In this document: piece by piece, positions 350 to 50,863 of the stretch
Numbering within the stretch: position 1 is the first letter of the stretch
Layout of the letters: each line of letters starts with the position of its first letter
Virus record (IMG/VR): IMGVR_UViG_3300023172_000016
Location: 26,914 to 90,913 of that record
Strand: one strand, 5' to 3'
Source of the DNA: a virus
DNA: 64,000 nt
The notes under the pieces: generated by a model
Seen by the model: only the letters and a program-made list of their open reading frames with translations
Told to the model about the DNA's origin: nothing
The model's database searches: none
Program-made: the position numbers and the translations under genes

Positions 350-368
350 AGTTTTTAATTTTTGTTAG

Positions 369-440
369 TAGCCCCGCCAGGAATCGAACCTGGATCAAAA
401 GTTTAGGAAACCCCCATTCTATCCGTTGAACTACGGGGCC
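369..440 (-). tRNA. tRNA-Arg(CCT)
   Basis: GGCCCCG acceptor stem, anticodon loop TT-CCT-AA, T-arm CCAGG-TTCGATT-CCTGG. Confidence 0.9.
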
Positions 441-456
441 AGCATTTATTTGTTAA

Positions 457-1134
457 TTAAATATAAGATTTTCTAAACAATGCTATAACATCCTTTGCGT
501 CATCAACAGCATCGTGTGTGACAACTTTATCCAAACCTGCTCTTTCCTTGCAAAGGCTTAGACCTGGAAGAGATTCATCATTTTTCCAATCCGTAAATAA
601 TACACTTGGATCTAAAACCCTTTGTCTAATCCTCACTAGTTGTTTCCATCTAGGAAGTCTAACTAAGAACTTCATATCGAAAGTAGCAAAGTTTTTCCCA
701 GCTGCTGATATGGTAATTGGTCTGGTTTTGTTTGTAATTGCTGGTAGCATTTTGCCATTTTTCCTCGTGACATAACCATCAGACACTGGATCGTTTAGTT
801 TAACGAAACCATTCTCTGCTAACCAATAATAGAACTCTTCTGCAACATCATCCTCATTCATGAATTTCATGCCTGTGAGTCTTTCAAGATCAAATATTTC
901 ACTATCGTCCTCGGCTGTTTGGTAATGAACAATGGATTCGATGATTTCCTTGTTCATGTTAATTGCATAAGGAGATCCCTCGATTCTTTTGTGTAAGATA
1001 GCTGCATGGAAGGTCGGAAGATCCTCCATGGGTTTAATGTTGTTGGTGTCTTCAATGACTGCACCAATTGTTAGGATCTGACAATTTTCTGGGTCAAGTC
1101 CTGTGGTTTCTAAATCTATGCTTATGTACTTCAT
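457..1134 (-). CDS. DEDDh 3'-5' exonuclease (DnaQ/oligoribonuclease-like)
   Basis: IDLETTG ExoI, NFATFD ExoII, HDAVDD ExoIII motifs. Confidence 0.85.
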   Translation of the reverse strand: MKYISIDLETTGLDPENCQILTIGAVIEDTNNIKPMEDLPTFHAAILHKRIEGSPYAINMNKEIIESIVHYQTAEDDSEIFDLERLTGMKFMNEDDVAEEFYYWLAENGFVKLNDPVSDGYVTRKNGKMLPAITNKTRPITISAAGKNFATFDMKFLVRLPRWKQLVRIRQRVLDPSVLFTDWKNDESLPGLSLCKERAGLDKVVTHDAVDDAKDVIALFRKSYI

Positions 1135-1144
1135 TTATCTCCTA

Positions 1145-1477
1145 TTATGATCCTACTTTCCTTGAATTTTTGTGATTTGTCCTTATGATTATCTCAACCT
1201 CACGGTCGTCTAAAATTCCAAAATTAACTTCTTCCTGTTCTTTCCAAGCTTTATACTGTACTACATAGTTTCCTTGTATAACTATTTCGTACTTGGAAGG
1301 CTCGTTTATAACCTCATATCTAATGAGGATACAATATGCGCTTGGGAAAGAAACCGATTTAACATCTACGACACGGTCCTCAGTTTTTTTGATTTTCTTC
1401 TGTGAGAACTTATTTACCCATTTCCAGAATCTATTTTTTCCTGGATTGCCCAATATTTTAAATTGCATAACTTTCAA
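1145..1477 (-). CDS. hypothetical protein
   Basis: 110-aa ORF in the gene string. Confidence 0.55.
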   Translation of the reverse strand: MKVMQFKILGNPGKNRFWKWVNKFSQKKIKKTEDRVVDVKSVSFPSAYCILIRYEVINEPSKYEIVIQGNYVVQYKAWKEQEEVNFGILDDREVEIIIRTNHKNSRKVGS

Positions 1478-1538
1478 TGACTGGTGTATCTTTCTATCCT
1501 CAATAATAGCATTGTTTCCCGTAATAAAAAAACGAGCA

Positions 1539-1565
1539 CAAAAAAGGCCTCAATATTTGAGACCC
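1539..1565 (-). terminator. intrinsic terminator
   Basis: GGGTCTCAA-ATA-TTGAGGCC hairpin followed by a T run on the minus strand. Confidence 0.6.
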
Positions 1566-1590
1566 TTAATTTTCTGTGAGTTTATAACTC

Positions 1591-1782
1591 TTAGATGAAT
1601 AGAATCAAATCACCAAACGAATCCCAATCACCATTGTCCTTTTCAGATTCTTTATCCGAATCATCATGTTCGTTCTCGGTTATTTCAGAATAGTAATCCC
1701 CGTAGGAATCATAGTGTGGAAGGAAAAAAGGATGGTCGGCTGCAGATTTTTCTGGGTTGTTAGGGGAAGGTGGCTGGTTCAT
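1591..1782 (-). CDS. small acidic hypothetical protein
   Basis: 63-aa ORF preceded by a GATAAATA motif and followed by a terminator. Confidence 0.5.
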   Translation of the reverse strand: MNQPPSPNNPEKSAADHPFFLPHYDSYGDYYSEITENEHDDSDKESEKDNGDWDSFGDLILFI

Positions 1783-1835
1783 TTTGTGGATTGGATTTTC
1801 TTGTATTTATCTTAGAATTTATTTTTTTTAAACTG

Positions 1836-1908
1836 AGGCACAGACTGGATTCGAACCAGTGAATAACGGATTTGCAGTCCGCTCCCTTAGCCACTTGGGT
1901 ACTGTGCC
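1836..1908 (-). tRNA. tRNA-Cys(GCA)
   Basis: GGCACAG/CTGTGCC acceptor, GCGGA-CTGCAAA-TCCGT anticodon arm, canonical T-arm. Confidence 0.95.
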
Positions 1909-2052
1909 TTATGCAGGTACAGGAGTTTGTATTTTAGACCCGGTTGGAAGTTGAGCGCTTGCTAATTCTTTTGCAATTATAGAATTTGGTGCTTCGATAT
2001 AAAGTCTTAGTGTTCCTCCCCTTTGTAAAATATAATCAACCCTGTATTTCAT
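1909..2052 (-). CDS. small hypothetical protein (47 aa) between tRNAs
   Basis: Manual translation MKYRVDYILQRGGTLRLYIEAPNSIIAKELASAQLPTGSKIQTPVPA*. Confidence 0.55.
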   Translation of the reverse strand: MKYRVDYILQRGGTLRLYIEAPNSIIAKELASAQLPTGSKIQTPVPA

Positions 2053-2071
2053 CTCTTAATTAATTAGTTAG

Positions 2072-2157
2072 TAGTCCGGGCGGGACTCGAACCCGCACGA
2101 GCATTACTGCTCAAAAGATTTTAAGTCTTTCATGTCTACCGATTCCATCACCGGACC
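2072..2157 (-). tRNA. tRNA-Leu(TAA)
   Basis: AAAGA-CTTAAAA-TCTTT anticodon arm, long variable arm, GCGGG-TTCGAGT-CCCGC T-arm. Confidence 0.95.
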
Positions 2158-2191
2158 AACTCCACAAATCTAAGATATGGCTGGAAAATGT

Positions 2192-3061
2192 CTACGATCT
2201 TTTTTGGTAAACTTTCAAGTTTTTAACAATCATGCTTCCCTCTGTGGGTGAATTACCATCTTTGGGCTCTTTTAATCCATTATTTAAGATAATAAATTGT
2301 TCAGCAGAATTGCACTTTAGCATTGCATGAATTTTACAAACTTGAACCAGTTGTCCGTCGAAGTAGATCTTTATAAACTTATCAGTCCAGTGAATTGCAT
2401 ACTGAACAAATCTATCCTGCGGATCTTTGACAAATATTCTAGGCGCTCCGTAATCCTTCTTACCTTCTTGCCAAGTATTCCCTGTTCCCCAATGGATGTT
2501 TGGTTTTAATGAAATATCATTTACATCCTGATCTGTATAAGCCTCAAAAATATCAATCTCTGGTGGCCAGGAGTTAGTACCACTGGTCCAAAATGCTGAC
2601 CATTGCATTTCCTCTTTTGGGAGCTGAATCTCAGCTTCTATCCAGCCATACTTAAAAGATCTTTTTGAACTTATCAAACCAGAAGCCCAAGGAAGCGTAA
2701 ACTCATCAGGAAGTTCGGGTTTTTGTTGCCATTGGGGTAGATCCTTTTTGTATATGGTTTTTGGTAAATATTTGTTTTCTAAAACCAAACCCTCCTTCGT
2801 GTTTTTAGTAGCTTCACCCGTCCAATACCACCAAAGTTGATCTGTGTGGAAAAATCCCCAGGGCTGGCCATATCTCCATTCATCCATGTTGAGTGAAGTG
2901 GAGGTGAAATCATCTTCGAAGGCTAATACATATCCCTCGGGCGGAAGAACCTTTCTTTCGCCAGTAACCTCTTTTTTAGAAAGCCTCCAAGCTTTGTATT
3001 GTAACCAAAAATTATAAAGGTTACCCAAGGGGATTCTTTGTAGATAGTGTTTAAGTACCAT
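2192..3061 (-). CDS. glycoside hydrolase family 16
   Basis: WSAFW and catalytic EIDIFE (ExDxxE) motif. Confidence 0.9.
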   Translation of the reverse strand: MVLKHYLQRIPLGNLYNFWLQYKAWRLSKKEVTGERKVLPPEGYVLAFEDDFTSTSLNMDEWRYGQPWGFFHTDQLWWYWTGEATKNTKEGLVLENKYLPKTIYKKDLPQWQQKPELPDEFTLPWASGLISSKRSFKYGWIEAEIQLPKEEMQWSAFWTSGTNSWPPEIDIFEAYTDQDVNDISLKPNIHWGTGNTWQEGKKDYGAPRIFVKDPQDRFVQYAIHWTDKFIKIYFDGQLVQVCKIHAMLKCNSAEQFIILNNGLKEPKDGNSPTEGSMIVKNLKVYQKRS

Positions 3062-3075
3062 AGATATATTTTTAT

Positions 3076-3651
3076 CTATATAACCACATTAAGAGACCTG
3101 TTGAAAATATATCCCCATATTCTTTCCATCACACAGGGAAAATCATCGTACTCCTCATGCATTTCCATAAGTCTTTCGTAAAATTCCTTAGACCTAGATT
3201 TTATTGAAGATGCAGGAACAACAAACTGAGCTCCAGCAAAAAAGGAATAAAAACCCAATCTAAAACCAAAGATTCTTTTGAAGTATTCGTCGAGTCTCAG
3301 ACCTACGTGATCCGGCCATCCATTCCCGGCAGAACCGAAAAAATATCTACCGAAGGGATTGAAATATATAAAATCCTTTCCAGAATTTTCTTGCTGAACT
3401 ATCTCTTCAAAGATTGTGTCATGGTTTGCGTGATCGAACGGATTTCCTTGAAGAAAACAATAATTTCCATCTAACCTTTCATAATTTTCGACTATAAAGG
3501 AAATGTATGTATAGGACTCTCTTCCTATATTTGGCATGAATTTGTTGTTTAGGAACTCTGAATTTTCTTCTTTCTTTATAACAAAAACTTCCCCAGGCAG
3601 GTCTCTTGACCAACTCACATCTTCCAAATATTGGGCTATTACATATTTCAT
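3076..3651 (-). CDS. DUF3431-like glycan-associated protein
   Basis: VIAQYLEDVSW, PNIGRESYTY, FLQGNPFDH, GAQFVV, MERIW motifs. Confidence 0.7.
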   Translation of the reverse strand: MKYVIAQYLEDVSWSRDLPGEVFVIKKEENSEFLNNKFMPNIGRESYTYISFIVENYERLDGNYCFLQGNPFDHANHDTIFEEIVQQENSGKDFIYFNPFGRYFFGSAGNGWPDHVGLRLDEYFKRIFGFRLGFYSFFAGAQFVVPASSIKSRSKEFYERLMEMHEEYDDFPCVMERIWGYIFNRSLNVVI

Positions 3652-3673
3652 ATTGTATTTATTTATTTATTTG

Positions 3674-3746
3674 CACGCCAGGTAGGATTCGAACCGGCGA
3701 ATAGCGGTTTTGCAGACAGATCCATTAACCACTTGGGTACCTCGCC
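3674..3746 (-). pseudogene. degenerate/chimeric tRNA-Cys(GCA) carrying the tRNA-Trp 3' end
   Basis: D-arm and GCA anticodon resemble the tRNA-Cys at 1836, but acceptor, anticodon and T stems are mismatched; last 14 nt identical to the tRNA-Trp 3' end. Confidence 0.7.
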
Positions 3747-3747
3747 A

Positions 3748-4377
3748 TTATTTTATCCATCTATGATAATCCATATTTTGCATTTGGATATCACTAAACC
3801 CAACTCTCTGAAATGCAATTGATGGAGAAAAGCAATATGCCTTACATCCCTTTTGTAAATCAGTAAGCATCACATCCAATGGTGCATTCTTTTTAGATAT
3901 CCGATCCAGAAAATTTCTAAAGAATTTACTGTTAATGCCAACAGCGTGAGTTGAGAATGTGTGATGCACTTGAACTAAATTCTCAGATACCTGGATTGGA
4001 GCCTTAGCCCCTTTATGAGAGTTGTGATTACCACCAAAATATAAAAGGTCCCAGTCACCCGGAATTTGTTGACTCAATTCACTGAAAGACTCAATCTCTG
4101 GTGTAAAGTAGCAGTCATCCTCAAGGATTAATAGATTACCAGAGTTTCCTTCTATACATTTTTCGACTATATCAATGTTGGAAAGGACCAGACCCAGCTC
4201 GGATGTTTTAATCGAGGTTTCTTTTGGATTTAGTTTCTTTCCGTCATAAGCAGAAAACCGCTGGACATTTTCTATATCCCATTTTTCGAACTCCAAAAGA
4301 GATTCTTCCCACTTGTCCATCCTCCTATCTAAATTGACACAAAATATGGATTCAAAGAAACTATTAATACCGGACAT
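3748..4377 (-). CDS. glycosyltransferase family 25-like
   Basis: CVNLDRRMDKW, RFSAYDG, LILEDD, WDLLYFGG, STHA motifs. Confidence 0.85.
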   Translation of the reverse strand: MSGINSFFESIFCVNLDRRMDKWEESLLEFEKWDIENVQRFSAYDGKKLNPKETSIKTSELGLVLSNIDIVEKCIEGNSGNLLILEDDCYFTPEIESFSELSQQIPGDWDLLYFGGNHNSHKGAKAPIQVSENLVQVHHTFSTHAVGINSKFFRNFLDRISKKNAPLDVMLTDLQKGCKAYCFSPSIAFQRVGFSDIQMQNMDYHRWIK

Positions 4378-4393
4378 ATGTTATTTATCTTAG

Positions 4394-4466
4394 CACGCCA
4401 GGTAGGGCTCGAACCCACGGCCCTCGGTTTTGGAGACCGATGCTCTACCAACTGAGCTACTGGCGT
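4394..4466 (-). tRNA. tRNA-Trp(CCA)
   Basis: TCGGT-CTCCAAA-ACCGA anticodon arm; canonical D and T arms. Confidence 0.95.
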
Positions 4467-4472
4467 AAATTG

Positions 4473-4555
4473 TTGGCAGGGACGGATTCGAACCGCCGTA
4501 CTCCGAAGAGAGCAGATTTACAGTCTGCCGCCTTTAACCACTCGGCCACCTACCA
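4473..4555 (-). tRNA. tRNA-Tyr(GTA)
   Basis: GCAGA-CTGTAAA-TCTGC anticodon arm, long variable arm. Confidence 0.95.
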
Positions 4556-4566
4556 ATTTTGTACCC

Positions 4567-5247
4567 CTATTTCTTTCTAATTACCAGTTTAATATTCGGA
4601 CCAGCGACGTAATGATCACCTAATATCTCCCATTCAGATTCTGGAAATTTACAATAGTGATAAATCATAGAACCCTTTCCCAATATTTCCTGACTTACTG
4701 TGTATTCATCAGTTTTAACAAATTCACCGTTGGAAAAGATGTTCCAGTAAATAATGGTGCCCTGCATGAAATTATCATCTACTGCAATATAGGATCCGCT
4801 TTTCATTTTATCCTTAATTGCCAAAAACTCTAAAAATCCATGGAGCATTGAAGGTTCAGGGTTATAGATGTCCAGATCCCACGAATCAAGATGTACAAGA
4901 TCTGGGGAACCTTCAAATTCCCTTAAAAACTTAACAGAATCCATCTTATAATGGTGAGAATTGTTAAATTCCGGTAAGGTCTCTTTTAAAAGCGATTCAC
5001 TTCTTTCTGAGATCTCCTGATCTATATCAACTGAGTGGAATTCCCCTCCGTTCTCAAATGCCAAATGAGCAAAAAGAAAACCGAAGCATCCATCTTCTAA
5101 ATTCTGACTAGCTCCAGTTTCTATTACACGAAGATTATCTACCGTATGTAGATCAATCAGGTTAGAAATAACTTGAGCCTGACCTATCCTATAGGAAGGT
5201 GGTGAAATGGAATTAAAGAATTCCAAAGATTTTTCCCAATTTTTCAT
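4567..5247 (-). CDS. class I SAM-dependent methyltransferase (Methyltransf_24-like)
   Basis: VIETG, SVDID, DSVKFL, DLVHLDS, IAVDD motifs. Confidence 0.75.
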   Translation of the reverse strand: MKNWEKSLEFFNSISPPSYRIGQAQVISNLIDLHTVDNLRVIETGASQNLEDGCFGFLFAHLAFENGGEFHSVDIDQEISERSESLLKETLPEFNNSHHYKMDSVKFLREFEGSPDLVHLDSWDLDIYNPEPSMLHGFLEFLAIKDKMKSGSYIAVDDNFMQGTIIYWNIFSNGEFVKTDEYTVSQEILGKGSMIYHYCKFPESEWEILGDHYVAGPNIKLVIRKK

Positions 5248-5261
5248 AATATCCGTATTTG

Positions 5262-5362
5262 TAATCGCGATTGGATTCGAACCAATTCCAGCTTTTCCAT
5301 TCAGAGTCAGCCTTACTGTTACTCAACCTTGGGAGGTGCTTCCAACCAATGGACTCGCGATT
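5262..5362 (-). ncRNA. tRNA-like RNA with non-canonical core (~100 nt)
   Basis: AATCGCG/CGCGATT acceptor-like stem and ATTGG-TTCGAAT-CCAAT T-arm; no canonical D or anticodon arm. Confidence 0.6.
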
Positions 5363-5419
5363 GTTTTTTATTACTTAGCAAAGTTAAGCGAATGTGCCGC
5401 TAAATAAAAATAGCTTTCC

Positions 5420-5608
5420 TTATTTCTTAAGGACTTTCTTAGATCTCTCTGCTAACCAGACAGCTCCACTTTTTTTGAATTCCTTCCAGTTATCAAAATC
5501 CCGTAGATCCTGTATAACCTCATCTGGAATAAGTGTGAATCCCTCAGGTGCTATGCCCTGATATTTGTAATACACAGAATTCTCGATTTTTTCTTGTATG
5601 TCTGACAA
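5420..5608 (-). CDS. hypothetical protein
   Basis: 62-aa ORF with TTG start, within the tRNA array. Confidence 0.5.
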   Translation of the reverse strand: MSDIQEKIENSVYYKYQGIAPEGFTLIPDEVIQDLRDFDNWKEFKKSGAVWLAERSKKVLKK

Positions 5609-5629
5609 TGTATCGTGGGTTATTTTTAG

Positions 5630-5705
5630 AGCCGAAGGCAGGAATCGAACCTATCGCGTCAAGACCAGTTTTGGCTGGCTTGCTCTGCCACTGAGCTACT
5701 CCGAC
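5630..5705 (-). pseudogene. tRNA-like gene with aberrant anticodon loop
   Basis: Intact acceptor and D-arm (GCTC-AGTGGCA-GAGC); GCCAG-CCAAAA-CTGGT gives a 6-nt loop; imperfect T stem. Confidence 0.6.
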
Positions 5706-5707
5706 TT

Positions 5708-5783
<76 letters not shown>

Positions 5784-5788
5784 TTTTG

Positions 5789-5862
5789 CTCCCCCACCTG
5801 GGCTCGAACCAGGGACCTATTGATTAACAGTCAACCGCTCTAACCAACTGAGCTATGGAGGA
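5789..5862 (-). tRNA. tRNA-Asn(GTT)
   Basis: GTTGA-CTGTTAA-TCAAT anticodon arm. Confidence 0.95.
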
Positions 5863-5906
5863 ATAGAAAGGTCCGGGCCCAAAAATAGCCCTTTTGAAGA
5901 CCTTAG

Positions 5907-5979
5907 TTGCGGGAGAAGGATTCGAACCTCCGACCTCCAGGTTATGAGCCTGGCGAGCTACCTCTGCTACCATCCCGCG
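5907..5979 (-). tRNA. tRNA-Met(CAT), initiator-like
   Basis: C1:A72 mismatch (CGCGGGA...TCCCGCA); CCAGG-CTCATAA-CCTGG anticodon arm. Confidence 0.9.
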
Positions 5980-5988
5980 ATATAATTA

Positions 5989-6093
5989 AAGGAAGGGGAA
6001 TCTGGCGAGTACTTGTATTTGCCCGTTTCACACCGGTACCAAGCCTCCCGTCTTTTTCCAAATCCTTGCCTCTGTGAATAAGCACCCTTCCTT
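5989..6093 (-). ncRNA. candidate structured ncRNA
   Basis: GC-richer ~105-nt spacer closed by a 9-bp terminal inverted repeat AAGGAAGGG/CCCTTCCTT, between two tRNAs. Confidence 0.4.
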
Positions 6094-6095
6094 AG

Positions 6096-6167
6096 TTGCC
6101 CCTGCTGGACTCGAACCAACACTGACGGAACCAAAATCCGCTGTCCTGCCAATTAGACGAAAGGGCA
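6096..6167 (-). tRNA. tRNA-Gln(TTG)
   Basis: GCGGA-TTTTGGT-TCCGT anticodon arm; TGCCCTT/AGGGGCA acceptor. Confidence 0.9.
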
Positions 6168-6173
6168 AGATTG

Positions 6174-6247
6174 TGGGCCCAGCAGGGCTCGAACCTGCGA
6201 CCTACTGATTATGAGTCAGTTGCTCTAACCAACTGAGCTATGAGCCC
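6174..6247 (-). tRNA. tRNA(CAT), probably Ile2 (lysidine type)
   Basis: GGGCTCA acceptor and ACTGA-CTCATAA-TCAGT arm, resembling bacterial tRNA-Ile2. Confidence 0.85.
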
Positions 6248-6253
6248 AGAAAA

Positions 6254-6306
6254 CAGGATGCTTTTTTTGAATATTTGCTGTATCAAAAAGTTGCTGTATG
6301 CATCCT
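6254..6306 (-). ncRNA. TACAGCAA stem RNA, copy A
   Basis: AGGATGC-A-TACAGCAA...GCATCCT-G; same architecture as 8875-9058 and 9063-9120. Confidence 0.6.
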
Positions 6307-6311
6307 TTTAG

Positions 6312-6393
6312 TACCGAGGGTCGGACTCGAACCGACACACCGTAAGGCGCTAGATCCTAAGTCTAGTGCGTCTACCAATTTCGCCACCCCGGC
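6312..6393 (-). tRNA. tRNA-Leu(TAG)
   Basis: CTAGA-CTTAGGA-TCTAG anticodon arm, long variable arm. Confidence 0.95.
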
Positions 6394-6465
6394 ATTTGCA
6401 GGATATCGCTTAACCTGCGGTGAGTGTTCCTTTCACCTTGTTCCCTTTCGGTACTACGATTTTTT

Positions 6466-6553
6466 TGGCGGAGAGGGAGGGATTCGAACCCCCGGTACGT
6501 TGCCGTACGCCAGTTTTCAAGACTGGAGCATTCGACCACTCTGCCACCTCTCC
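6466..6553 (-). tRNA. tRNA-Ser(TGA)
   Basis: CCAGT-CTTGAAA-ACTGG anticodon arm, long variable arm, CCA encoded. Confidence 0.95.
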
Positions 6554-6652
6554 ATGTTCGGTTTTGTTCCACATTAGCCCTACCACACAGTGGACATGGG
6601 TAGGATTTTGACTAAGGTGCTCCTAAGAGCTTTACACCGAAAACCTGATCAG

Positions 6653-6725
6653 AGCCACTGGAGGGACTTGAACCCCCGACAGGCTGATTACAAATCAGCT
6701 ACTCTACCAGCTGAGTTACAACGGC
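6653..6725 (-). tRNA. tRNA-Thr(TGT)
   Basis: GCTGA-TTTGTAA-TCAGC anticodon arm. Confidence 0.95.
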
Positions 6726-6755: not shown

Positions 6756-6847
6756 TGTTTGATTATTTGTCTTTTTTACATCCTGTAGGATATTATGTTT
6801 CCATACAAAAACACAAATAATTACATTTTTTCTCCTCTCAGAGTTTG

Positions 6848-7284
6848 TGGAGCTGGTGGGATTCGAACCCACGTCCAGCTAGGCACACCCAGAGAATCTC
6901 ATTCACAGGCTTATCTAGTTTTTATAAACTAGCAAATCTTTGTCACTTATTTTTTTGGACTGAGATGAGTGACGATACTCAGCGGAAGACGCTAACAGCG
7001 ATCTTAAGGGTATTGGACAGTAGTCCTCAGGGTTACTGATCGACTTCCTATTGTGGGTACTTCTAACCCTTATTCCCCGATGTAACTTTCTGTTCCTAGG
7101 CAGTTACCGCCCAATGCTTAGGCTGCAAGAGCAACTTCAGCTGTTTCAACAGAACCTAGTCCTGCCAAAACGAAAAATGGATTTTCGCCATTTGAAGTGT
7201 TACATAGGTTATTAAAGAGTTTCCAATGCTAACTCTGCCTGCAATTCAAAGAACGTTCGCCTCCTGTCGATTCCATTCAGCCCC
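6848..7284 (-). ncRNA. ssrA: tmRNA
   Basis: 5' GGGGCTGAATGGAATCGAC; 3' GTGGG-TTCGAAT-CCCAC-CAGCTCCA; internal tag ORF 7189-7118 ending ALAA*. Confidence 0.95.
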
Positions 7285-7336
7285 ATTTCTGTTCAGCAAA
7301 TTTAATCTTTGTAAGGGATTAAAAAAACTGAGATAT

Positions 7337-7370
7337 AAAAAAACCCAAATCTTTTGAGAGATTTGGGTTT
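7337..7370 (-). terminator. intrinsic terminator (attenuator candidate)
   Basis: 12-bp stem AAACCCAAATCT/AGATTTGGGTTT, 6-nt loop, followed by TTTT. Confidence 0.8.
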
Positions 7371-7397
7371 AGATATATCTAGACTTCTTCTAAGTGA

Positions 7398-7478
7398 TCA
7401 CCTAAACCCAAAGTGATCCTTGCCTGTTGGGTAAAATCCCAGCGTCCAGATGCACGATATTTGATTTAAATGTTTCAT
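7398..7478 (-). CDS. putative leader peptide MKHLNQISCIWTLGFYPTGKDHFGFR (26 aa)
   Basis: Manual translation; last codons contain TTTGGGTTTAG, complementary to the terminator 5' arm; promoter motifs at 7501-7508 and 7537-7544. Confidence 0.65.
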   Translation of the reverse strand: MKHLNQISCIWTLGFYPTGKDHFGFR

Positions 7479-7573
7479 TATAGATGAAGATTACGGTTAT
7501 TATATATCAAATCAACAAAAAGTTTCTTTTGCAATGCAAATGTAATATCTTTTTCCACCATAAAAAATGAGCT

Positions 7574-8656
7574 CTAAGATTTAACAAAATTCCTAATCCT
7601 CGAAAGGTACTCTAATTGATTACCCTTAACTACATAAGAATCTCCAACTGAAATGTCTTCAGAGGATATTGTATAATCGATAATATAATCCTCAGCTTCA
7701 TCTAATACTACTCTTTCCCAAGACCATTCACCCCTATTTAATATATAATTTGAATGTAGATCCAATCCAGATCCCTTAATACTTATCCTAAATTCAGCTT
7801 TTTGGAAAGGTGAGGTTGTCTTTAAATTTACAAACAATCTTACCGAACTAAGATCTTGCTGGTCAACAAAAAGAGAGCAAGTTGAATTTGTATATAACAT
7901 AAAATCACTCTTACTCCACTGCCACTTGTGAGTATCCCAATTTAATTTAACTTCTCCACCGAAAAATTGGTTTAGATCATTTCTTGTCTTTACAATAGAT
8001 TTAGTTCTCGACTCAATCTCGCACAGGAAATCTTCAAAGACGTAGTTTGGGAATTTTTCTATGAAGTCCCTATTAGTATCATATCTTCCAAAAGGAAGAG
8101 TTAAGTATGTACCCAGATCCAATCTTATAATGAACAAATGTCCGTGGAGCCAGGGTGAATTCGGAACACGGTAGAAAAGCGATGACCTTCCAAGGGAGTT
8201 AAGTTCGGTGCAAAGTGAATTAATTTTTATGTCAAACTCTTTAGGGAATATAAAGTCCGCCTCCATATAAACCACAAAATCATGCTTTCTAGAGAATGCA
8301 GAACCTATTGCTGGCATTAAAAGGTTCACAATGGCCGGAGTATAGCCTATCCATCCCTTATAATCCCGGTAAGCTATATCTCCTGTGTTTATCCAATTAA
8401 AATTTGGTAAAGAATTCACATTTTTCAATATAGCTGGATCTAATATATCGGAATCCTTATACGAAATCTCATTCTTAGAATTGTAAAGATAGAGGTCTAC
8501 AATATCCTTAATTTCTTGGGAACAATCTAAATGACTGATGAGCGTAACATACCCGCCTAATGACTTTATAGATCCAATGATTTCTAGAAGATCCTTCTTC
8601 TTTTCTGGAGAATCCGGGAATGCTGAGATTATAAAATTGCAATCAAAGTCTATCAT
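7574..8656 (-). CDS. hypothetical protein, possibly glycosyltransferase-related
   Basis: 360-aa ORF; VTLISH and YMEAD (DxD-like) segments. Confidence 0.55.
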   Translation of the reverse strand: MIDFDCNFIISAFPDSPEKKKDLLEIIGSIKSLGGYVTLISHLDCSQEIKDIVDLYLYNSKNEISYKDSDILDPAILKNVNSLPNFNWINTGDIAYRDYKGWIGYTPAIVNLLMPAIGSAFSRKHDFVVYMEADFIFPKEFDIKINSLCTELNSLGRSSLFYRVPNSPWLHGHLFIIRLDLGTYLTLPFGRYDTNRDFIEKFPNYVFEDFLCEIESRTKSIVKTRNDLNQFFGGEVKLNWDTHKWQWSKSDFMLYTNSTCSLFVDQQDLSSVRLFVNLKTTSPFQKAEFRISIKGSGLDLHSNYILNRGEWSWERVVLDEAEDYIIDYTISSEDISVGDSYVVKGNQLEYLSRIRNFVKS

Positions 8657-49339: not shown

Positions 49340-50863
49340 TCAAAGCTTTACTTTAAAAATCTTGTACTTGAATTTTTCGTTCTTGTAGATCTCTATCCTA
49401 GCGTCACTATGTTTCAGCAGATAGTTCTTGTATTTAGGAGATGAAAAATCGTCAACAAAGTCAATTACATTCACCTTATCCTTACCTTCCATTTTCCTCA
49501 TCCCCCTTCCGAGGCTTTGTTTAATTAATACCTCGCTCTTGTAAGATTCTACTAGGAAAATGTTGTGTAAGTTGTTAATCGAGATACCAGTAGAAAATGT
49601 ACCATAGGTAGCAACAAGAATCTTATTCTCCCCATTAGCCATCCTAGATTTATACTCCTCTCTAAGTGATTCATCGGTATCACCATCTACATAGAATACT
49701 TCCTTGTCATTTGTTATTTCCCTTAACCTATTCCATATCTGCTTACCATATTCATCTTTTACAGACTGGAAAAGCACTAGCGAATTCTTGGAAGTCTTGG
49801 AAATAAAGTCAACTACGTAATTTAGTCTTTTATCGCTTTCAATTACAAGTTTTCTCTCCAGGTTATAAAGTTCGTTTCCCTCCAGGTTTTGTGAGTTAGC
49901 TTTGAGATCAGCAAGCTTTTGTTTAATCTCCGTATCTAGCCAATCAAGCCTTACTACCTTAATGTGTACTGGAGTAGCGTGTTTATTTTTAAACAAGAAG
50001 TCTGGAGAAATTTCTACCACAACAGGTCCCAGAAATTGCTGGATAGTAAGGTGGTCTGCAGATCCTCTTTTGGTAAGAGTACCAGTAAGGCCGAATCTCC
50101 ATTTGCTATGCATACACTTAGCAACAATCTTCTTGATCGACATGGAGTTTGTGTGATGAGCTTCATCGACAAAAACAGCATCTATCTCATCAAAGAAATC
50201 ATCATCTTTTTTTACAAGCGATTGGAACGTCCCTATAATTAGGTCACATCCCTCTCTGAGTTTACTTCCGCCACCTATCTGTTGAATACGAACCCCCAGT
50301 TCTCCTACACCATAGTCAATAAAATCGTCATTCCCCTGGAATACCAGGTTAGTATTAGGCACAATCATTAGGAACTTTCTAATAAGACCCCTCTGCTTTA
50401 AAAAAGCAAATATCATGAAGGATATTAGGGTCTTTCCAGATGAAGTAGCTATCTCAGAAACAGAGTATCTATACTTAACAATTTTCCATGCAGCTTCAAC
50501 TTGATAATCCCTTGGGGTTATCTCCTTATCCCCAAAAAATTCATCCACCCATCCCTGGAATTCCTCAAGGGTGAGGTCATTTAAAATTAGATTTTCTAAA
50601 CCATCTATGTTTATCTCAATACCAAACTCCTCACCAATCTCAAGAACTTCTCTCCAAAGACCAATTGGAACTTTCCAAAAAGGCCCTCTCTTTTCTATGA
50701 AACAAATGTTGCCGTCCCATATTTTCTTTTTCACAAGCGGATGGAAATACCAATTGTGTATTTTTTTGGTTAGCGAGATCTCAATTTGTCTTTTTTCTAC
50801 CTCGTCATTTGCCTGTGCAAGTATAAGCCATTGTTGATCTTCTGATACGTTAAACCTCAGCAT
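49340..50863 (-). CDS. uvsW: UvsW-like SF2 helicase
   Basis: PRDYQ, ATSSGKT, DEAH, GLTGT, QSLGRGMR. Confidence 0.9.
   Translation of the reverse strand: MLRFNVSEDQQWLILAQANDEVEKRQIEISLTKKIHNWYFHPLVKKKIWDGNICFIEKRGPFWKVPIGLWREVLEIGEEFGIEINIDGLENLILNDLTLEEFQGWVDEFFGDKEITPRDYQVEAAWKIVKYRYSVSEIATSSGKTLISFMIFAFLKQRGLIRKFLMIVPNTNLVFQGNDDFIDYGVGELGVRIQQIGGGSKLREGCDLIIGTFQSLVKKDDDFFDEIDAVFVDEAHHTNSMSIKKIVAKCMHSKWRFGLTGTLTKRGSADHLTIQQFLGPVVVEISPDFLFKNKHATPVHIKVVRLDWLDTEIKQKLADLKANSQNLEGNELYNLERKLVIESDKRLNYVVDFISKTSKNSLVLFQSVKDEYGKQIWNRLREITNDKEVFYVDGDTDESLREEYKSRMANGENKILVATYGTFSTGISINNLHNIFLVESYKSEVLIKQSLGRGMRKMEGKDKVNVIDFVDDFSSPKYKNYLLKHSDARIEIYKNEKFKYKIFKVKL

Follow-up and report, generated by a model that had tools for sequence, protein, structure and literature searches.

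Leader-peptide attenuators are known from trpL, hisL, leuL, and pheL, from the multivalent leaders thrL and ilvL (ilvGMEDA), and from pheM of the pheST synthetase operon. The locus described here lies in a 64,000-nucleotide stretch of an IMG/VR virus contig (the window), and it resembled these attenuators in its basic layout. Specifically, a short ORF was located in the 5′ leader, a terminator and an antiterminator were mutually exclusive, the ORF ended in the 5′ strand of the antiterminator, the structure that forms was predicted to depend on where the ribosome is, and the regulatory codons corresponded to the product of the operon. The locus also differed from the amino acid attenuators in several ways. 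The genes under its putative control were phage tRNA and tmRNA genes, as opposed to biosynthetic or synthetase genes, and in its leader each of about 14 tRNAs was represented by about one codon, as opposed to runs of one to three amino acids. In addition, the antiterminator was the default fold, which needs no 1:2 hairpin and points to a transit-time race, and some relatives of the locus carried tandem attenuators. The first-pass annotation of this DNA had called the leader the opposite of the classical leaders that repeat one amino acid, and this description was apt, as single codons for many tRNAs were found.

T-boxes are a second point of comparison. Like a T-box, the leader would sense tRNA status, and it placed a terminator and an antiterminator upstream of translation-related genes. 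Unlike the leader, a T-box binds one uncharged tRNA via a specifier codon and the T-box sequence, and it does so without translation. No T-box fold was found in the window, and an Rfam scan of the whole window at the gathering score returned only the tmRNA and tRNAs. In the relatives of the window, the conserved element was an ORF and not an RNA fold.

The role of phage tRNAs has been debated for decades, chiefly as codon compensation, as a means to replace degraded host tRNAs, or as a way around anticodon nucleases. We found no published account of how a phage tRNA array is regulated, and full-text searches of papers that need no subscription returned none in which leader-peptide attenuation acts on tRNA genes or phage tRNA arrays. 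Among published cases of regulated accessory tRNA arrays, the nearest is found in Anabaena sp. PCC 7120, whose trn operon is a long tRNA array that is induced by translational stress (PMC8421152) and is under promoter control via direct repeats bound by the ribbon-helix-helix repressor TrcR (PMC10272220). Leader peptides, attenuation, and terminators are not mentioned in the 2021 Anabaena paper (PMC8421152). The window would share with the trn operon an accessory tRNA array that is kept low and induced on impaired translation. In contrast to trn, which is a cellular element under promoter control, the window locus belongs to a phage and carries a putative attenuator.

The features of the locus are shown in Table 1. 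Based on the sequence comparisons and the folding models presented below, we consider it likely that the short ORF encodes the leader peptide of a ribosome-mediated transcription attenuator, which gauges the decoding time of the array's own tRNAs and places the tRNA and tmRNA genes under negative feedback.

Table 1. Features of the window locus and leader ORFs of phage LR756501.1
Feature	Position	Strand	Description
Promoter-like box	7499..7526	(-)	GAAAC, spacer, then TTTGATATATAAT; ends 20 nt upstream of the leader ATG
Leader ORF	7398..7478	(-)	26 sense codons plus TGA; peptide MKHLNQISCIWTLGFYPTGKDHFGFR
Sensing-competent part, codons 1-20	7419..7478	(-)	Codons for 13/14 array tRNAs; delimited by masked-ribosome folds
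Segment 2, antiterminator 5′ strand	7400..7412	(-)	TTTGGGTTTAGGT; codons 23-26 plus first base of the stop codon
Segment 3	7362..7374	(-)	ATCTAAACCCAAA; upstream flank plus terminator 5′ arm, common to antiterminator and terminator
Intrinsic terminator	7337..7370	(-)	12-bp stem AAACCCAAATCT / AGATTTGGGTTT, 6-nt loop, T run
tmRNA	6845..7284	(-)	Rfam RF00023, 85.4 bits; first gene behind the attenuator
tRNA array	368..6725	(-)	14 genes plus a few intervening ORFs; ARAGORN and Rfam tRNA matches
LR756501.1 leader, Leu			MNNILHINLLNSLCLLGIKLIG (all six Leu codons); precedes four Leu tRNA species
LR756501.1 leader, Met/Gln/Ile/Glu			MNFRIINMIQEQMQQIQNLIGGTISY; precedes Met, Gln, Ile-TAT, Glu tRNAs
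LR756501.1 leader, Arg/Thr/Val/Ala/Gly/Pro			MLFNSNISVKFTPAPAVAFRRGTGTGTGTCVPAGCGFEGMNG; precedes Arg, Thr, Val, Ala, Gly, Pro tRNAs
LR756501.1 leader, Trp/His/Phe/Lys/Ser			Rich in Ser/Lys/His/Phe/Trp; precedes Trp, His, Phe, Lys, Ser tRNAs

The leader ORF is read as ATG AAA CAT TTA AAT CAA ATA TCG TGC ATC TGG ACG CTG (codons 1 to 13) and GGA TTT TAC CCA ACA GGC AAG GAT CAC TTT GGG TTT AGG TGA (codons 14 to 26 and the stop). The reverse complement of 7398-7478 was identical to the sequence quoted in the first-pass annotation, and the counts given there were correct: 24 of the 26 codons are distinct, 17 amino acids are represented, and TTT is the sole repeated codon. The annotation had also presented this diversity as a distinguishing property. 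Diversity did exceed that of random 26-codon windows, but only modestly (P of 0.01 to 0.04). Specifically, when windows of the phage's own genes and iid codon-usage draws were used as nulls, P was 0.010 to 0.013 for at least 24 distinct codons in 26 and 0.036 to 0.04 for at least 17 amino acids. No Shine-Dalgarno sequence was found before the leader ATG. This is normal for the phage because its genes generally lack one (16%, versus a background of 23%) and have A-rich upstream regions. The upstream neighbor of the leader is a 360-aa ORF (8656-7574) with no clear family. In the promoter-like box, GATATATAA was invariant in 19 of 19 aligned relatives and TTTGATATATAAT was kept in most; the box is thus a putative promoter with a predicted transcription start nearby.

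The array tRNAs, in order, are Thr-TGT, Ser-TGA, Leu-TAG, CAT, Gln-TTG, CAT, and Asn-GTT (1 to 7), followed by Gly-TCC, a Phe-like AAA, Tyr-GTA, Trp-CCA, Leu-TAA, Cys-GCA, and Arg-CCT (8 to 14). These 14 correspond to the 13 tRNAs of the first-pass annotation plus the irregular Phe-like tRNA(AAA). The annotation had claimed a readable codon for each of its 13 tRNAs. All of them were matched when strict wobble rules were applied, and the leader contained readable codons for all 14 of the ARAGORN decoding sets when the Phe-like tRNA(AAA), which is matched by TTT, was included. The part of the claim that concerned Ile2 is the annotation's own inference: both CAT tRNAs were called Met by ARAGORN, one of them carries the C1xA72 initiator mark, and the second may be Ile2.

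Full 14/14 coverage was observed in 0 of 23,305 windows of the phage's genes and in about 2e-5 to 1e-4 of simulated leaders (four null models). None of the other small ATG ORFs of the contig (n=350) reached it, with a maximum of 12/14. The first 20 leader codons alone matched 13 of the 14 tRNAs (P ~2e-5), and the sole match inside the pairing segment was that of Arg-CCT via AGG, the last codon. Thus, the gene-window, simulated-leader, and small-ORF nulls ruled out a chance match. Composition or diversity alone was also ruled out, since uniform and mononucleotide nulls likewise gave values of about 1e-4, and in most lineages the other small ORFs of the same loci fell below the coverage of the leaders. 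By eye, the order of the leader codons was not colinear with the order of the tRNA genes.

Eight of the 26 leader codons (AAA, AAG, CAT, CAC, ATC, CCA, GGC, and GAT) have no cognate tRNA on the contig. The first-pass annotation had raised the question of whether tRNAs for the unmatched codons occur elsewhere in the genome; ARAGORN found no further tRNAs in the remaining 27 kb of the 90.9-kb contig, and none of these tRNAs is present within the 90.9 kb. Relatives do have cognate tRNAs for CCA, GAT, and AAA/AAG. Since a close relative of 118 kb was rated 43% complete, the contig probably represents about a third of the genome, and the tRNA set may therefore be incomplete.

The Phe(AAA) tRNA-like gene called by ARAGORN (5629-5705, minus strand) has a mismatched anticodon stem. 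The same element was located at the corresponding place in many relatives, where the ARAGORN reading was '???(aa)', and its conservation suggests a role other than ordinary decoding.

The leader ORF is followed by the terminator and then by tmRNA, an order typical of a leader-peptide attenuator. The terminator is strong, lies 29 nt past the leader stop, and forms a hairpin at 7370-7341. Four of its 12 stem pairs are G-C, its stability was calculated as -13.7 to -16.5 kcal/mol, and it was nearly invariant in the relatives. Segments 2 and 3 formed a 13-bp duplex of -17.2 kcal/mol, which ranked in the top 0.2% of all 33-nt windows. To model the effect of a ribosome, nascent transcripts of the window and nine other lineages were folded with a 31-nt ribosome mask placed at each codon. 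In these folds, a ribosome stalled at codons 1 to ~20 allowed the antiterminator to form, with the terminator 5′ arm paired at a probability of about 0.6 to 0.8. A ribosome in the last 5 to 7 codons or at the stop blocked the antiterminator and freed the terminator in the 10 lineages, and across these lineages stalls as late as about the sixth-last codon still permitted the antiterminator. These folds agreed with the annotation's view that codons at the very 3′ end are unable to sense.

In the window leader, the antiterminator was the default fold without a ribosome. Segment 3 was paired at 0.70 to 0.84 without a ribosome in the window, L157, L136, and L081, and no 1:2 hairpin was predicted there. 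A 1:2 anti-antiterminator was predicted in L093, L113, L196, and L092, where segment 3 was paired at 0.04 to 0.35 without a ribosome. Because the antiterminator is the default fold, the window switch looks like a race that RNA polymerase runs against the lead ribosome, and in such a race the decoding times of all upstream codons would add up.

Relatives of the locus were recovered in two ways. Eighty IMG/VR loci were retrieved via the neighboring DUF2828 gene, and two of them, L001 and L003, retain the TTTGATATATAAT box, the terminator, and an ORF that starts at the same ATG. No close relatives were found in IMG/VR via the 360-aa upstream gene or with an exact-terminator search; a looser terminator pattern succeeded. 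Specifically, metagenome contigs were scanned with a terminator-only pattern, and a tRNA or tmRNA was required within 900 nt downstream. The scan yielded 38 oriented matches, including some loci with two tandem terminators, and all 38 had an ATG ORF of 20 to 46 codons that ended 24 to 37 nt before the terminator. The layout of promoter-like box, ORF, in-ORF antiterminator, terminator, and array was kept in the relatives. The leader peptides themselves were of at least 10 unrelated types with no conservation between clades. Arrays located behind different terminators (L040, L047-L060, L059-L064, and L075) had the same kind of leader.

Pairing between the ORF tail and the terminator was kept as well. 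Among the 12 tested lineages that carry a AAACCCAAATC-type terminator, the duplex between the leader tail and the terminator arm had a calculated energy of -14 to -18.6 kcal/mol and ranked in the top 0.2 to 1% of windows in 10; it was weaker in L081 and in the second tandem leader of L110. No clear antiterminator was found in the ORF tails of L059 and L040. The terminator flank varied by lineage (CTAAACCC, CACAAACCC, AACTAACCC), and the leader tails varied with it (GGGTTTAG, GGGTTTGTG, GGGTTAGTT). An anchored alignment (20 sequences) showed the antiterminator helix to be 100% paired in the 19 distinct sequences. Both antiterminator pairs that lie outside the search pattern covaried (UA/AU and AU/GC), and 0 of 500 shuffles reached the score. 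A single column-wise structure for the whole antiterminator was rejected since the register beyond the core differs between clades, and covariation was counted on the seven shared pairs only.

These comparisons bear on two readings in which the leader is not decoded as a sensor. In the first, the ORF encodes a functional small peptide or arose by chance, the hairpin ends the upstream unit, and the array has its own promoter. In its favor, the 360-aa gene (7574-8656) is followed after about 200 nt by the terminator, at which its transcript could end, a TTACAA...CAGAAT stretch is located between the terminator and tmRNA, and no RNA contig spans the leader, a finding that carries the proviso that contigs cannot show absence. 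We regard this reading as very improbable. The ORF is directly preceded by a conserved promoter-like box, and the peptides are unrelated between clades while the position of the ORF, its length, and the stop-to-terminator distance were kept in 38 of 38 matches. Moreover, it leaves both the covariation between ORF tail and terminator and the covariation between codons and tRNAs unexplained.

In the second, the leader RNA is a nontranslated switch that, like a T-box, makes direct contact with tRNAs or with some factor, and the frame is a by-product. Alternative terminator and antiterminator structures are likewise a hallmark of riboswitches and of T-boxes, the latter of which sense tRNA. However, no Rfam family matched the leader at the gathering score, and between clades the reading frame is conserved while the sequence from the start to the antiterminator is not. 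The leaders of the window and L001 are separated by an insertion and a deletion, eight bases apart, that together restore the frame, and specifier sites for 14 tRNAs are impossible in 60 nt of RNA. We consider this the least probable of the readings.

If the leader gauges tRNA decoding, its codons should follow the tRNA set located downstream. Coverage of the leader's own array exceeded that of random leaders drawn from the codon usage of the locus, with 13/13, 14/16, 11/13, 14/16, 16/16, 11/12, and 11/11 tRNAs covered in example lineages. For nine near-independent leader types, the combined Fisher P was 3e-13, and it was 2e-18 when the last six codons were left out; the lineages are partly related, which inflates both pooled values. 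A cognate codon was present in the leader for 105 of the 115 tRNAs that were present (91%) versus 57 of the 109 that were absent (52%), as counted over eight lineages and 28 species, and permutation within tRNA species gave P < 5e-5. The codon for Ala-TGC tracked its tRNA in eight of eight cases, and Leu-TAA, Leu-TAG, Trp, Tyr, Glu, and Ile-GAT did so nearly as well. Readable codons made up 71% of the sensing part versus 43% of the last six codons, which are constrained by pairing. Close relatives in which 13 to 18 of 27 leader codons had been exchanged still covered their own tRNA sets, with P values of 0.04, 0.004, 0.0003, 0.014, and 0.16. Thus, the covariation between leader codons and tRNA repertoires that the first-pass annotation had envisaged was seen across relatives (3e-13; 105/115 versus 57/109). 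The within-genome and between-clade tests are cleaner than the pooled P values.

One tRNA did not follow this pattern. tRNA-Arg(ACG) was missed by the leader in five of the six lineages that carry it (L081, L179, L040, L050, and L058). Possible explanations are that this tRNA is transcribed as part of another unit or that its decoding is not limiting. The sixth lineage, L059, has the rare CGT codon in its leader.

A within-genome case was provided by LR756501.1, a published 735-kb phage in which 66 tRNA matches are arranged in blocks by amino acid class. The loci concerned are 335000-384999 (L202) and 165000-212000 (L203) of this genome. Of its five sub-arrays, four are each preceded by a separate mini-ORF and terminator, with an antiterminator inside each ORF, and the leaders are listed with their tRNAs in Table 1. 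Each leader was most enriched for codons of its own sub-array (4.3-, 2.8-, 2.3-, and 1.6-fold, with P = 8e-4, 7e-4, 9e-6, and 0.1), a comparison that controls for genome composition. No leader was found upstream of sub-array 3 (Ile, Cys, Asp, Asn, and Tyr); a frame that resembles the bL12 C-terminal domain by eye ends upstream of this block. The two designs differ in that LR756501.1 has its array in amino acid class blocks, mostly with a leader rich in a few amino acids before each, whereas the window has a single mixed array whose only leader contains about one codon for nearly every tRNA, and tmRNA would also be gated.

The cultured phage phiCbK (NC_019405, 46500-53500) appears to have a similar arrangement. 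Its gp335, which is annotated as a 'hypothetical protein', is 45 aa long and rich in Ser, Leu, Pro, and Lys. An annotated terminator comes next (gp335 and terminator at 49540-49769), and tRNAs for Pro, Lys, Leu, and Ser are located behind it. Cultured systems for experiments, such as phiCbK on Caulobacter, appear to exist. Three annotated rho-independent terminators are located directly before tRNA blocks in this region, and a second mini-ORF, which ends in ...MSKTYRQFVRQIQVVRNIRAGRSRMADEGFRD, precedes a block of Phe, Val, Ile, Gln, and Gly tRNAs.

The tRNA comparisons also bear on the idea that the locus is a ribosome-dependent attenuator that responds to general translation capacity, as set by ribosomes, host shut-off, or amino acid starvation, and that the codon match is incidental. 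The folding models agree with this idea as far as they go: the window switch behaves as a simple race in which any delay before the last codons would open the terminator, and because the antiterminator is the default without a ribosome, any codons would serve. We nevertheless think it unlikely, since leader codons follow their own tRNA set far beyond composition, the match persists through codon turnover, and leaders of one genome match different sub-arrays, none of which would be expected of a general sensor.

The anatomy of the locus, its conservation, the codon-tRNA match, and the covariation are established by computation. The proposed mechanism that builds on them, the tRNA-gauging attenuator, would work as follows. 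Transcription would begin at the conserved promoter-like box, and a ribosome would translate the 26-codon ORF while RNA polymerase heads for the terminator about 30 to 60 nt past the stop. If all codons were read fast, the ribosome would cover segment 2 (7412-7400), the terminator hairpin would form, and transcription would end. If the ribosome were delayed within codons 1 to ~20, segment 2 would be free to pair with the terminator 5′ arm, and the polymerase would continue into the tmRNA and tRNA genes. Because codons 1 to ~20 sample nearly every array tRNA, a shortage of any of them would raise transcription of the array. Such a shortage could concern host- or phage-supplied tRNAs and their charging or intactness, and sufficiency would shut the array off. 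Thus, the sequence patterns suggest that slow decoding of the leader codons is probably the only condition under which the phage increases its tRNA production.

The first-pass annotation had proposed a general sensor of the phage tRNAs. The codon sampling on which that proposal was built is now backed by the conserved layout, the covariation, the position of the codons, their turnover, and the LR756501.1 leaders; the step from stalling to readthrough stays at the level of a prediction. We likewise infer that the ORF is translated, that its translation is coupled to transcription, and in which direction and to which physiological trigger the switch responds. As for the trigger, anticodon-nuclease defense and RNA decay were both suggested in the annotation; they are speculation, although the link to anticodon nucleases is plausible.

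More tentatively, large phages might run their tRNA arrays, here together with tmRNA, under a codon-sampling homeostat in which the loss of any single tRNA re-induces the whole set and the rescue RNA. The same device might also act as a counter-defense trigger, and huge phages might use one leader per amino acid class. Under such a homeostat, replacement tRNAs and the ribosome-rescue RNA would be re-induced within one transcription round, whether tRNAs were lost to anticodon nucleases, to other tRNA-targeting defenses, to phage-driven decay of host RNA, or through codon-usage mismatch.

A leader that mirrors its array implies that the phage measures the decoding of those codons and adjusts its tRNA output. 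If this is true, the function of phage tRNAs becomes directly testable, and leader-peptide attenuation is extended from amino acid supply to tRNA supply, with a new design in the form of a multicodon transit-time integrator, sometimes two in tandem. Leaders could also reveal which tRNAs share one transcription unit, and synthetic sensors of tRNA availability could be built on this design.

The host of the phage is likely a member of the Bacteroidota, as judged from the A-rich upstream regions without Shine-Dalgarno sequences, the tmRNA tag, and the kinship of the DNA polymerase. The tag in relatives begins with GEN and ends with ALAA, and the polymerase was closest to those of metagenomic huge phages and Prevotella Lak phages. 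Searches for cultured phages with similar DNA returned tRNA matches only.

Contigs of four metatranscriptome runs covered the tmRNA and tRNAs and not 7353-7514; such contigs cannot show absence, starts, or ends. Metatranscriptome assemblies from salt marsh and freshwater contained near-identical tmRNA pieces (window 6849-7289). Among these, one contig ends at 7289, near the mature tmRNA 5′ end at 7284, another spans 6849-7193, and one record skips 6913-7115.

Several additional arrangements were observed among the relatives. Tandem attenuators precede one array in L110, L164, L179, L181, L183, and L200 (e.g., L164:1-420), with a 31- to 36-codon leader and terminator followed by a 43-codon leader and terminator. 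The tRNAs located after them are Phe, Trp, Ala, Asn, Tyr, Glu, Lys, His, Gln, and Asp, and in L164 the two tandem leaders jointly cover 16 of 16 tRNAs. On the reverse strand of L156, a 20-codon ORF, MKKIFKIKRFKKFNRKLEMG, with 8 Lys and 3 Phe codons was located within a tRNA array, about 100 nt before a terminator of the same type (oriented 4639) and directly ahead of tRNA-Lys and tRNA-Phe; its antiterminator is weak, and the contig stops 240 nt later. Hairpins with a conserved loop, TTCAGCAA(A/C)(C/T)TAAA, were located between the DUF2828 gene and the tRNA leader in L047-L060, about 200 to 400 nt upstream of the leader, and in L069 and L070. These hairpins resemble the UACAGCAA small RNAs that have been described beside the DUF2828 (Ro60-like) gene of the window.
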